A DNA stretch of 64,000 bases, taken from positions 5,127-69,126 of the forward strand of contig JAOACZ010000128.1 of the NCBI GenBank assembly GCA_026417575.1, in the 5' to 3' direction. This DNA comes from a bacterium. GTDB taxonomy: Bacteria; Auribacterota; UBA3054; JAPLST01. Under the pieces are notes generated by a model, which saw only the letters and a list, made by a program, of their open reading frames with translations, made no database searches and was not told the origin of the DNA. Every line of letters starts with the position of its first letter. The stretch's first letter is position 1. The position numbers were made by a program, and so were the translations under genes. Shown in pieces: positions 58,934-61,508 of this stretch.

Positions 58934-59560
58934 TCAGTACGGTGTTTCCATATTTTCTTCGACGGCTTCTTCCTCCTCGAACTCGACTTGGAGGCTTTCT
59001 TCGCCTGGGGCGGGTGGCGCGTAGGGGGACCACTGTGCTGCGAACACAAATTCCGGAAAGAGGTCAGGTGAGAATGCACTTGGTCCGGTCATACCGAACA
59101 TCATGACATCCACAACTCCGAGGACGGCGCGGGAAGTCATGAAGAAGAGACCTTTTAGCAAGCCGCTTCCTATGCCAAGGACCGGAAAATTGACATTTTC
59201 AATAACCAGGTTGCGGGGCAATTCCAGCCAGCAGGTAGAAAGGTTTACGCATCCACGAAAGAAGGCCCAGGGAGGGTTGAGCTCGCGCGGGTAGGTGGGG
59301 CGGGGCGGGGGTGCGGGCGTTGGTACTGGCGTAGGAGTTGGCAACGCCGCAGCCTCTGTCGCAGGCTTGGCAGCCGCTGTTGGCGCTACTGGCGGAGGGC
59401 TCACAGGGGTGGGAGCGGAGGGGGGCGTTGCGAGCGTTGGTGCATTAGTTGCGATTGCATTAGCGCTCACATGTGCCACCGTGCTGATGTTTGTCGCGTG
59501 CGTAAGCCACGCACTGCCCAGGGCAATTGTTAGGCTCGCGATCAAGCGCTGTGTCTTCAT
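58934..59560 (-). CDS. Small secreted family protein, paralog A, with a Pro-rich N-terminal linker
   Basis: Signal peptide; core FFRGCVNLSTCWLELPRNLVIEN...GIGSGLLKG...FGMTGPS...PEFVFAAQW. AAGGAG RBS. Confidence 0.55.
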   Translation of the reverse strand: MKTQRLIASLTIALGSAWLTHATNISTVAHVSANAIATNAPTLATPPSAPTPVSPPPVAPTAAAKPATEAAALPTPTPVPTPAPPPRPTYPRELNPPWAFFRGCVNLSTCWLELPRNLVIENVNFPVLGIGSGLLKGLFFMTSRAVLGVVDVMMFGMTGPSAFSPDLFPEFVFAAQWSPYAPPAPGEESLQVEFEEEEAVEENMETPY

Positions 59561-59634
59561 CTGGAACTCCTTGTGACGTCTGGTGTGGCGAATAGCTCAT
59601 CTATGCAAGATGGGTAGACTCCTCCTCATGCAGC

Positions 59635-60042
59635 TTAGTAGAGCTCAGCTTTGTCCGAGAGCCAGGGGTCTTCCCACGGATAATCAGGCACGGCCGTAGC
59701 ATAGCCATAATGGCCCGTGTAACCAACGGAAAGCAGGTCCACCACGCCGAACAGCGTGCGCATCGCAGTCATAGTTGTGCCCATGAGAGGGCCGGTGAGC
59801 ACTGCCGAGAGAGGCCTTCGAGTGAATTCGTAACTTAAATTGCGGGGCAGCTCGAGCCAGCCCAACAGCACATTGGCTGCGCCGCGTTGCATCCCGAAAC
59901 GCATGGCCTCGCCTGTGGTGTCAAACTCGTATTCTGGCATGAGGGCGAAGGCAGCGTCGTCTCCCTCATTTTGGGCGCGCACGAGCGTGGGATTGGACAC
60001 TATGAGAAGAATCGTGACGAGTATTGCTGCAAAAGGTTTCAT
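59635..60042 (-). CDS. Small secreted family protein, paralog B
   Basis: Start MKPFAAILVTILLIV (signal peptide, GGAGAC RBS). Core GMQRGAANVLLGWLELPRNLSYEF...GPLMG...SVGYTGHYG...PDYPWEDPW. Confidence 0.55.
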   Translation of the reverse strand: MKPFAAILVTILLIVSNPTLVRAQNEGDDAAFALMPEYEFDTTGEAMRFGMQRGAANVLLGWLELPRNLSYEFTRRPLSAVLTGPLMGTTMTAMRTLFGVVDLLSVGYTGHYGYATAVPDYPWEDPWLSDKAELY

Positions 60043-60069
60043 GAAAGAACGTCTCCGTGACATAAGGGA

Positions 60070-60843
60070 TTACCGTGGGGGGCGGGGTGTGCCGCCGGGG
60101 AGTGTTGGGTCAGCCACGCTAGCTGCTGGTGGCGGAGGGGCAAGGGATGGAGCGCTGCGTACACGTGCATCTGTAGTGCCCACCGTGACGGGGGCTGTGC
60201 CCGGCTGAACAATTTTGCGTGGGGTAGCTGGGCCAACGGGTTCGTCGCTGGTGTGAAGTGTAGGCGGCTGGAGCGTTTCGTGATAGAACCAATCGCCTTG
60301 CCACACGAAGTCAGGGTAACCGCGCGCCAACCGTATGTCGCCGAAGTAACCCAGAGTCACTATGTCGGCCACACCCGCCGACATTCGGCTCATACCGCCG
60401 CCGAGGCCAGCTAGCCATGACGTGCCCAGTGCTTCATACCATGGGCGCTGGCTAGAGAATTCATACGTGAAGCCGCGCACAAGCTCGCCGGGCCAGAGGG
60501 TGAGGTTGGCAAACCCTCGCCAGAGACCGAAACCCATGACACGCCAGAGAGCAGTTGTGCGCATGGGAGGGGCGGTAAGTTCCTGGTAAGCGGATTCGCT
60601 GAGCAGATCGAGGTCCGGCACAGCCGCAGGTTGTGCGCCCGTAGGGCGAGCTTGCCCCAGCTCGGCGCGCGGAACCACAGGCGCGGCGAGCGGCAATCGC
60701 TCGGGAGCCGACGTTGGCGCACTCGCGCCAGCGCGCCCCACTACGCTTGTCGCCGGCTCCAATACCTGTGGTAACAGGACGTCGCCGTGTGCCAGCCATG
60801 CGGTGGCCACTACTGCTGCCCCAAGCCAACGGAGCGTCTTCAT
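60070..60843 (-). CDS. Small secreted family protein, paralog C
   Basis: Start MKTLRWLGAAVVATAWLAHG (signal peptide). Core GLWRGFANLTLWPGELVRGFTYEF...GLGGGMSR...LGYFGD...PDFVWQGDW. Confidence 0.5.
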   Translation of the reverse strand: MKTLRWLGAAVVATAWLAHGDVLLPQVLEPATSVVGRAGASAPTSAPERLPLAAPVVPRAELGQARPTGAQPAAVPDLDLLSESAYQELTAPPMRTTALWRVMGFGLWRGFANLTLWPGELVRGFTYEFSSQRPWYEALGTSWLAGLGGGMSRMSAGVADIVTLGYFGDIRLARGYPDFVWQGDWFYHETLQPPTLHTSDEPVGPATPRKIVQPGTAPVTVGTTDARVRSAPSLAPPPPAASVADPTLPGGTPRPPR

Positions 60844-60890
60844 TGTTGTCTTCCCATCATGTCGTGAGTTCAGGGTGAGTCGCCACGCGC

Positions 60891-61469
60891 TTACTCGCGA
60901 AACGACCACCAGTATGCTTCCACGCGGCGCGCAAACACGGGTAAACTTTCGCGCACCGTCTGCTTACACTCCCAACGGGGTTTGGTTAACGACCACATTG
61001 AGTACTGACCATTTCCCTGCGGTGTCGTCACGAATTCCACGTACTCAGGGACGTCCACCTCAATCGCCAGTGCGCGCCATACGCCGTCATCCTCAACCAG
61101 GTGTACATACAGAGCGCCTTTGGTGATGTTGGGGGGCGGTGTCTCACGCACGCACACAAATGGTACCACTGCAAGCATGCCATTCGTGGCTGCGTAGAGA
61201 TTCTGCACTTCCCAGCGCAAGCTCAACACGCTGTAGCGTAAGAGCTGAGTACAACCCGGGAAGTTTGTCAACGCCGCTCGCAAGCTGGGCATACAGTACA
61301 TGCCTGCACGGCGCATATCCCCGCGAGCCACCGCTCGCAACAACCCATTCACAGCCTCTTCCGGCGCTACCTCGCATCCTGCCACGAGCCCAGCTGTAGC
61401 TGCCACTAACGCCAGCACGCATGTGTGCCGTGCGAGCGCCCGACCGCCAGGCTTCGTGTGGCATTTCAT
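60891..61469 (-). CDS. Lipoprotein of unknown function (possibly NTF2-like), first gene of the paralog array
   Basis: Start MKCHTKPGGRALARHTCVLALVAATAGLVAGC with lipobox LVAGC. The upstream promoter lies inside the track's extended ORF. Confidence 0.45.
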   Translation of the reverse strand: MKCHTKPGGRALARHTCVLALVAATAGLVAGCEVAPEEAVNGLLRAVARGDMRRAGMYCMPSLRAALTNFPGCTQLLRYSVLSLRWEVQNLYAATNGMLAVVPFVCVRETPPPNITKGALYVHLVEDDGVWRALAIEVDVPEYVEFVTTPQGNGQYSMWSLTKPRWECKQTVRESLPVFARRVEAYWWSFRE

Positions 61470-61479
61470 ACTGCCAGTG

Positions 61480-61508
61480 ATTATAACAAATGCCACGTGA
61501 ATCGGCAA
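61480..61508 (-). promoter_or_regulatory. Sigma70-type promoter positioned for a leaderless transcript of the lipoprotein gene
   Basis: Minus strand reads TTGCCG (61508-61503), a 17-nt spacer, then TATAAT (61485-61480). The ATG at 61469 follows 10 nt after the -10 with no SD. Confidence 0.5.

Follow-up and report, generated by a model that had tools for sequence, protein, structure and literature searches.

An anciently fixed envelope gene cassette of a lipoprotein and three TIGR04073-superfamily paralogues upstream of ahcY in a member of the Auribacterota

The stretch of DNA analysed here (the window; 64,000 nucleotides (nt), positions 5,127 to 69,126 of contig JAOACZ010000128.1, assembly GCA_026417575.1, from a bacterium of the Auribacterota) carries on its minus strand a lipoprotein gene followed by three paralogous genes, C, B and A, and then by the adenosylhomocysteinase gene ahcY (Table 1). 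A fourth paralogue, D, lies ~7 kb from this triplet. Comparison with related loci firmly identifies the lipoprotein-C-B-A cassette as a real, anciently fixed envelope gene set, whose paralogues are old and stably maintained. Our best overall explanation, which we regard as having about an even chance of being right, is that a fixed envelope cassette is expressed from one promoter and encodes the subunits of a hetero-oligomer of helical hairpins. The region was first described in an initial annotation made by eye. A check of the open reading frames (ORFs) returned the same coordinates for A, B, C and D, and the tandem arrangement, the lipoprotein and the position upstream of ahcY were all described correctly.

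A core of ~84 amino acids is common to A, B, C and D. The cores have 16 invariant columns, and pairwise BLASTP comparisons gave 28-44% identity with E values of 1e-7 to 1e-27. With filters off, a four-core profile searched against all six reading frames found exactly four ORFs in the window (E 1e-38 to 1e-43) and no further copy, the next best match having E=1.6. The clear shared core claimed in the initial annotation is borne out by both searches; its count of five copies in 10 kb has to be reduced to four. The lipoprotein, a candidate for the fifth, was ruled out as a family member by the six-frame profile search. Chance ORFs were ruled out by homology, purifying selection and synteny.

Related loci (L numbers below) came from contigs of one genome per species and from metagenome contigs, both of which were scanned, and from a look-up of exact protein matches. 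In a placement by PcrA, the named matches reached at most 50% identity and were spread over Firmicutes, Methylomirabilota and other groups. The full order lipoprotein-C-B-A-ahcY is present in L001, L004, L006 and L016-L022. Partial versions were found in L005 (lipoprotein-C-B-A to the contig end), L024 (C-B-A-ahcY) and L023 (C-B). Wherever a related contig extends far enough upstream of C, a lipoprotein homologue stands there, and the gene next to A in the relatives is always ahcY (L001, L004, L006, L016-L022 and L024). Judged by ahcY identity to the window, these loci form at least three groups besides it (92%, 78% and 76%), giving at least four lineages in all. The isocitrate dehydrogenase gene icd follows ahcY in L001, L006, L016 and L017 but not in the L004/L018 lineage. 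On the upstream side, the window has phoU, and L004 and L005 have an unannotated ORF that resembles, by eye only, the C-terminus of an M16 peptidase. The upstream neighbours thus differ between lineages, and the cassette therefore begins at the lipoprotein gene.

The window cores are 48-90% identical to their positional orthologues (61-88% for C), compared with 28-43% to the other window paralogues. Being closer to their positional orthologues than to their paralogous neighbours, they must derive from duplications older than the lineage split. The pattern of a triplet plus one separate copy is repeated in a related metagenome-assembled genome (MAG), on the two of its contigs that were examined: the triplet is in L006, and L007 has one D-like copy. 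Nei-Gojobori ratios of nonsynonymous to synonymous substitution rates (dN/dS) against L001 are 0.22 for the lipoprotein and 0.13 for both C and B, and 0.03 for ahcY and 0.02 for icd; a weakness of these figures is that dS is saturated (>1), which makes the ratios rough, and that dS could not be estimated for A. Relative to their housekeeping neighbours, the cassette genes evolve at about four times the rate, and they are clearly under purifying selection. An expanded, possibly diversifying family, as the initial annotation had it, does not fit the single positional orthologue that each paralogue has in at least four lineages, nor the dN/dS of 0.13-0.22 for the lipoprotein, C and B; recent or diversifying expansion is ruled out by these ratios and by positional orthology. 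The tails of the proteins are also kept among orthologues: A ends in ...ETPY or ...ETAY after an acidic stretch in most of them, B in ...AELY or ...DYE, and C in a basic ...PRR. Together, the old positional orthology, the purifying selection and the conserved tails point to three non-interchangeable subunits.

TIGR04073 is the sole NCBIfam match for A, B, C and D (E 2.3e-13 to 6.5e-4), and none of the four matched Pfam. The curated cut-off of this family is a whole-protein hidden Markov model score of 50 bits. It is reached by D only, as a borderline case (50.0 bits, E 2.3e-13); B (47.2 bits), A (37.5 bits) and C (19.7 bits, E 6.5e-4) fall below, and by the family's own rule three of the four window paralogues are non-members. 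Aligned with the annotated TIGR04073 proteins P0029, P0031, P0033 and P0034, the window proteins match them column by column, and TIGR04073 was matched by 145 of the 146 best relatives retrieved with the window-family profile. When 1.84 billion cluster representatives were searched exhaustively with a profile, 2,211 relatives were found at E<=1e-3 and 845 at E<=1e-10, each relative being a cluster at 50% identity. We are highly confident that the cassette belongs to the TIGR04073 superfamily. The label given in the initial annotation is therefore right at the superfamily level, with D alone at the cut-off. The family has no Pfam model and no solved structure, and a literature search on TIGR04073 and on "exosortase system-associated protein" found no paper on it.

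Like TIGR04073, the window family consists of small exported proteins with one core of ~75-85 residues and the pattern R-G-x-x-N-x-x-T-G-W-L-E-L-P-[RK] ... G-x3-G ... R-x3-G-x2-[DE] ... P-[DE]-[FY]-V-W, and shares with it the variable linkers and tails, the occasional tandem copies and the two-core proteins. By inspection, the window proteins are small proteins with a signal peptide as expected of TIGR04073, with A and C longer than typical members through their linkers and tails. They differ from the canonical family in having R, not K, after E-L-P, in having x-G-x-T-G...Y after helix 2 where the canonical sequence has T-F-x-x-P, and in one further conserved Trp. Unlike the canonical members examined, they stand in a fixed lipoprotein-C-B-A cassette adjoining ahcY. 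By these sequence features the window proteins form a distinct subfamily within the superfamily. The architecture is constant among the 146 relatives, with a signal peptide, a variable linker, one core (two in 7 of the 146) and a variable tail; tails across the family are Cys/Lys-rich, coiled-coil-like, acidic or Lys-rich. The divergent decorations remarked on in the initial annotation are thus real and are a trait of the whole family.

Tandem pairs of family genes also occur in unrelated organisms (L012 4444-5645, L026 5881-7256, L034 659-1867 and L009 7588-8375). Those of the clade of D pair one short copy, whose tail is Cys/Lys-rich, with one longer copy that has a further, coiled-coil-like tail; the long copy ends in ...IE[QR]RAAMYQ in L012 and L034 and otherwise in L026. 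A fifth type of family protein (core MIKGLGRGGANLLAGWLELPQC...) is encoded in L017 (3087-3539), ~0.8 kb upstream of the lipoprotein gene, and in L033 (5920-6285). It has no counterpart in the window, where phoU holds that position.

The core is confidently predicted to be a two-helix hairpin. In the AlphaFold2 model of the B core (predicted local distance difference test score, pLDDT, 88.9; predicted template modelling score, pTM, 0.74), the helices span residues 2-30 and 35-59. Column statistics were taken over 185 family sequences. R8, G9, N12, E19, G43 and R50 are conserved in at least 98% of them, and P21, R/K22 and D/E57 in at least 95%. The near-invariant positions are R8, G9, N12, W17, E19, P21 and R/K22 in helix 1; G35, G39, G43, R50, G54 and D/E57 in helix 2; and P74, [FY]76, W78 and W82 past helix 2, in an aromatic segment P-[DE]-[FY]-V-W...W. 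In each helix the conserved polar and glycine positions recur every 3-4 residues and therefore form one stripe (R8, N12, E19 and R/K22 in helix 1; G35, G39, G43, R50, G54 and D/E57 in helix 2). The strongly hydrophobic positions make up a second, separate stripe on each helix. The hairpin is probably amphipathic and soluble, and we infer that the invariant stripe is an outward-facing functional surface. No specific structural relative of the core was found with Foldseek (matches at E>=3.9), and a sequence-profile search of the PDB with the core gave nothing below E=0.085. Generic hairpin and four-helix-bundle proteins (Dps/ferritin helices, F-BAR segments, Esx/WXG-type proteins) are 0-20% identical to the core, mostly below 10%, and have no motifs in common with it. 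This likeness is one of shape only, with no evidence of common descent or function.

Each paralogue adds its own parts to the hairpin. In A, the signal peptide is followed by a Pro/Ala/Thr-rich linker of ~70 residues, the core and an acidic tail (...EEAVEENMETPY). In B, the linker is short and acidic and the tail ends in ...DKAELY; a protein annotated as hypothetical (P0001, NCBI N2595_06205) is 100% identical to B. Look-ups by exact sequence gave no record for P0001 or for D. C has a Pro/Ala-rich linker before the core and a Pro-rich tail that ends in ...GTPRPPR; of the four copies it diverges most, its counterpart of GWLELPRN reading WPGELVRG, and its ATG is common to the L001 orthologue. 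The isoelectric point (pI) of mature A is 4.4, and mature A and B were both placed at ~4.3. Signal-peptide-like N-termini, read by eye, are present in all four paralogues, with a basic n-region, a hydrophobic stretch of 10-15 residues and a small-x-small site (THA|T, VRA|Q, AHG|D and LMA|G). It is very probable that the four hairpin proteins are exported to the envelope by the Sec pathway. Shine-Dalgarno-like sites precede A (AAGGAG at 6 nt), B (GGAG at 10 nt) and D (GGAG at 6 nt), and C has only a weak GGGAAG. The initial annotation gave every gene a signal peptide and a ribosome-binding site of its own, which holds for the signal peptides as read by eye and for the sites of A, B and D, C being the weak case.

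The first cassette gene matches NCBI N2595_06215 (192 aa) at 100%. Its signal peptide, ...ATAGLVAG|CEVAPEE, fits the lipobox pattern [LVI][ASTVI][GAS]C, and the lipobox Cys is present in 9 of 9 close lipoprotein homologues as well as in the distant L004-type orthologues (LCAA|C). The homologue search for the lipoprotein returned these nine only, all close, and NCBIfam and Pfam searches with it gave no match.

The lipoprotein gene is preceded by a promoter-like site of the sigma-70 type. Its TATAAT (61485-61480) ends exactly 10 nt before the ATG (61469), as the initial annotation had stated, with a TG in front and TTGCCG at 17-nt spacing. There is no Shine-Dalgarno sequence in the 10-11 nt between the -10 hexamer and the ATG. 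The same geometry is found in relatives, as TTGCTG-17-TGtTATAAT-10 nt-ATG in L001, L016 and L017 and as TTGT[GA]A-17-TGcTATACT-11 nt-ATG in L004, L005, L018 and L021. It is thus kept in three of four lineages, and the lipoprotein itself is only ~30% identical in the L004-type loci, including at its N-terminus. The promoter reading is supported by this conserved layout and not by the window scan. A leaderless or near-leaderless lipoprotein transcript is plausible. Several observations weigh against this reading: the promoter scan by itself was not above chance (2 sites found, 1.6 expected); L006 is arranged otherwise, with a TATAAT ~60 nt upstream and a GGAG; and for a transcript that began exactly at the A of the ATG, 10-11 nt would be slightly long, which makes a leader of 2-4 nt equally possible. 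The leaderless mRNA proposed in the initial annotation is therefore supported in its leaderless or near-leaderless form by the geometry, which does not prove a leaderless start.

Leaderless mRNAs are common in Actinobacteria and Deinococcus-Thermus. The window site resembles those of leaderless bacterial mRNAs in having a consensus extended -10 element a few nucleotides before the start codon and no Shine-Dalgarno sequence. It differs in spacing, which is 10-11 nt here and usually ~6-8 nt for transcripts that begin at the A of the ATG. Elsewhere in the window, a -10 hexamer lies 6-12 nt before the genuine starts of three more genes (21810, 30434 and 52278), and leaderless-type starts may be common in this organism. 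For the M14 peptidase (start region 21810-21822, minus strand) a TATACT stands 6 nt before the ATG at 21810, and for the M20 peptidase (start region 30416-30436, plus strand) a TATAAT stands 12 nt before the ATG at 30434. The M29 aminopeptidase (start region 52242-52280, plus strand) most likely starts at the GTG at 52278, 7 nt after TTGACT-17-TGcTATAAT; its Pfam match opens at residue 68 of a longer ORF.

A terminator-like hairpin (61600-61579) lies downstream of the phoU stop (61696) and ahead of the promoter-like site, and marks the upstream boundary of the cassette. From the lipoprotein gene to ahcY the intergenic gaps are 47, 27, 74 and 46 nt, and a same-strand scan found no promoter- or terminator-like site in these four gaps. 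An Rfam search of the region found no riboswitch and no other RNA element, and the A-ahcY intergenic alignment contains no conserved element. The cassette is likely co-transcribed with ahcY, and icd is possibly the end of the same transcription unit.

Paralogue D stands in a context of its own. It consists of a signal peptide, the hairpin core and a basic Cys/Pro-rich tail with 8 Cys (...CPPSCPPACPPPCGECK), with a pI of ~9.5 (calculated for an approximate cleavage site). Besides its own Shine-Dalgarno sequence (GGAG), it has a promoter-like site at 52237-52208. In the core, D is 83-84% identical to its orthologues in L027, L028 and L030; the Cys/Pro-rich tail is kept in L027 and L028, and the L030 contig ends inside it. 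In the window, D precedes genes for a thioredoxin-fold lipoprotein and a DsbD-type protein, as in DsbD/thioredoxin modules, a likeness that is confined to the context of D. The order D, thioredoxin-fold lipoprotein, Zn-ribbon protein, DsbD and AsmA is kept in L027 and L028. D appears to be a separate Cys-rich version tied to a thioredoxin/DsbD redox module, and this arrangement hints that a dedicated envelope thiol-redox module may handle its cysteine tail. Cys/Lys-rich tails typify the D clade (L025, L026, L031 and L034; P0037, P0049, P0051 and P0095). The D-like copy in L007 has no thioredoxin or DsbD neighbour, and the link between D and the redox module is therefore limited to close relatives; the D-clade member in L012 adjoins unrelated genes.

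Taken together, these data suggest how the cassette could work. One promoter close to the first ATG probably drives the lipoprotein gene, C, B and A, and reads on into ahcY. Each paralogue would be exported by the Sec pathway with a cleavable signal peptide, and would carry a low-complexity linker, one hairpin of ~83 residues and a tail of its own. The hairpin may serve as a docking or oligomerisation module, through which C, B, A and the lipoprotein would assemble into a membrane-tethered periplasmic hetero-oligomer. The tails would provide paralogue-specific contacts, acidic in A and B, basic (...PRR) in C, and basic and Cys-rich in D. We propose this lipoprotein-tethered hetero-oligomer of hairpin modules tentatively, at somewhat less than even probability, because four genes are co-retained in a fixed order, the single promoter is conserved, the tails are orthologue-specific and the hairpin is suited to a bundle. 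Several facts count against it. The AlphaFold model of the lipoprotein, for which an NTF2-like fold was a tentative first impression, is unusable (pLDDT 43, with nine close homologues as input). Tandem family pairs occur without the lipoprotein in L009, L012, L026 and L034, and many family members are solitary and in unrelated contexts; the hairpin is therefore not generally dependent on this partner set.

The same solitary members in unrelated neighbourhoods, and the fact that D works away from the cassette, would be expected if each hairpin acted alone, for instance as a periplasmic adaptor or shield that docks via its invariant stripe on a common envelope component. The tandem order would then be a relic of old duplications, with the lipoprotein and ahcY as bystanders. 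An invariant surface common to ~2,200 cluster representatives from many organisms also suggests a common ligand over lineage-specific partners. However, the order and the three orthologous types, with the lipoprotein always first, persist down to 76% ahcY identity while the upstream neighbours change, and so strict a retention of four genes would be unusual for unrelated functions. We consider independent action possible, and a little less probable than the tethered hetero-oligomer. It is improbable that the helices insert into the membrane as a hairpin, or form an alpha-helical pore or raft, after export. The glycine stripe would then serve tight helix packing, and the invariant Arg, Glu and Asp residues would pair with one another within the hairpin. 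Against this, the hydropathy of the cores in 19-residue windows stays under the usual transmembrane level (best 1.58, in A; none above 1.2 in B, C and D), each helix has two or three charged residues, and the hydrophobic and polar positions lie in separate stripes, as in a soluble amphipathic hairpin.

A role as exosortase/PEP-CTERM accessories, in which the hairpin proteins act on exosortase substrates or on exopolysaccharide, would be compatible with the other readings. It is favoured by the curated name of TIGR04073 and by annotated members in MAGs of Zetaproteobacteria and Omnitrophica. That name came out of phylogenetic profiling; gene adjacency was not its basis. A Pfam search found no exosortase domain in 36 window proteins, which include every window ORF of at least 200 aa except antisense overlaps, and the precomputed Pfam lists contain no exosortase in the neighbourhoods of five family members. 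No PEP-CTERM tail was found by a crude pattern in the 64-kb window and 265 kb of related loci. The neighbourhoods of canonical and D-clade members (L009-L015) have no recurring partner and no exosortase, and three of the four window paralogues score under the family cut-off. The exosortase association carried by the family label thus has no detectable link at the window or related loci. The absence is weak negative evidence, as it concerns these loci and not whole genomes, and we regard the accessory role as unlikely. A further long shot is that the lipoprotein and three hairpins constitute a new envelope machine, such as an alpha-helical oligomer whose glycine and charge stripes let it contact or span a membrane, and that its invariant position just ahead of ahcY reflects co-regulation with the methyl cycle, not chance synteny.

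Table 1. Cassette genes, paralogue D and neighbouring features in the window
Feature	Position	Strand	Details
pstA, pstB, phoU	upstream of cassette; phoU stop 61696	minus	
Terminator-like hairpin and T-run	61579..61600	minus	8-bp stem, 4 G-C pairs, then TTTTTCGCTA
Sigma-70-type promoter-like site	61480..61508	minus	TTGCCG-17 nt-TGtTATAAT; 10/12 hexamer matches, TG extension
Lipoprotein gene	60891..61469	minus	192 aa; ATG 61469; lipobox LVAG|C; first cassette gene
Paralogue C	60070..60843	minus	257 aa; hairpin core 60540-60283
Paralogue B	59635..60042	minus	135 aa; hairpin core 59907-59659; alternative ATG 60063
Paralogue A	58934..59560	minus	208 aa; hairpin core 59272-59024
ahcY (adenosylhomocysteinase)	57469..58887	minus	TIGR00936, 612 bits; 46 nt downstream of A
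icd (isocitrate dehydrogenase)	56188..57459	minus	9 nt after ahcY; ORF call
Paralogue D	51622..52137	minus	171 aa; hairpin core 52032-51784
Thioredoxin-fold lipoprotein	51597-51049	minus	Pfam
Zn-ribbon protein	51030-50800	minus	Pfam
DsbD-type thiol:disulfide transporter	50781-49189	minus	Pfam; DsbD_N, DsbD_TM and thioredoxin domains
AsmA-family protein	49192-46133	minus	Pfam

The icd gene is named through its 89%-identical L001 orthologue, in which PF00180 was found. An ORF with SNase and helix-hairpin-helix domains (55291-56256, plus strand) runs 69 nt into the 3' end of icd, which is convergent with it. The L001 orthologue, at 277 aa, is the shorter of the two and leaves icd clear, so the window ORF may have a non-functional C-terminal extension or a missed stop. 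The GC skew of the plus strand is very strong. At third codon positions, (G-C)/(G+C) is +0.3 to +0.66 in most genes from 22 to 50 kb in either orientation (0.61 in GltB; 0.66 in AsmA, which is encoded on the minus strand). Values from 3 to 20 kb are mostly within +-0.2; beyond 50 kb the skew falls, and from the lipoprotein gene (60891) on it is negative. The two apparent switch points, ~40 kb apart, could be related to replication, to a rearrangement or to a chimeric MAG contig. Four ORFs had no Pfam match at the thresholds used: 5867-9130 (minus, 1087 aa), 28772-30157 (minus, 461 aa), 40525-41958 (minus, 477 aa) and 53308-54081 (plus, 257 aa), the last with a signal-peptide-like N-terminus and repeated K/E-rich motifs. 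Genes for tRNA-Ser(GCT) and tRNA-Lys(CTT) lie ~0.9 kb from a tyrosine recombinase gene (2646-3569; the stretch covers 1565-3569) with Phage_integrase and SAM-like N-terminal domains, which could be a housekeeping gene of the XerC/D type or the edge of an integrated element.

Our analysis leaves established views unchanged. TIGR04073 was already catalogued and is uncharacterised; what is new is a subfamily that scores below its threshold in a fixed operon context. The comparisons also add evidence that several mRNAs of this lineage begin at the start codon or right beside it. Should the envelope-machine reading prove true, it would provide the first functional handle on a superfamily of ~2,200 cluster representatives. 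The cassette gives this widespread family a concrete, testable form, with three non-interchangeable paralogues and a lipoprotein kept in a fixed order under one promoter over deep divergence, and it points to a multi-subunit envelope assembly.

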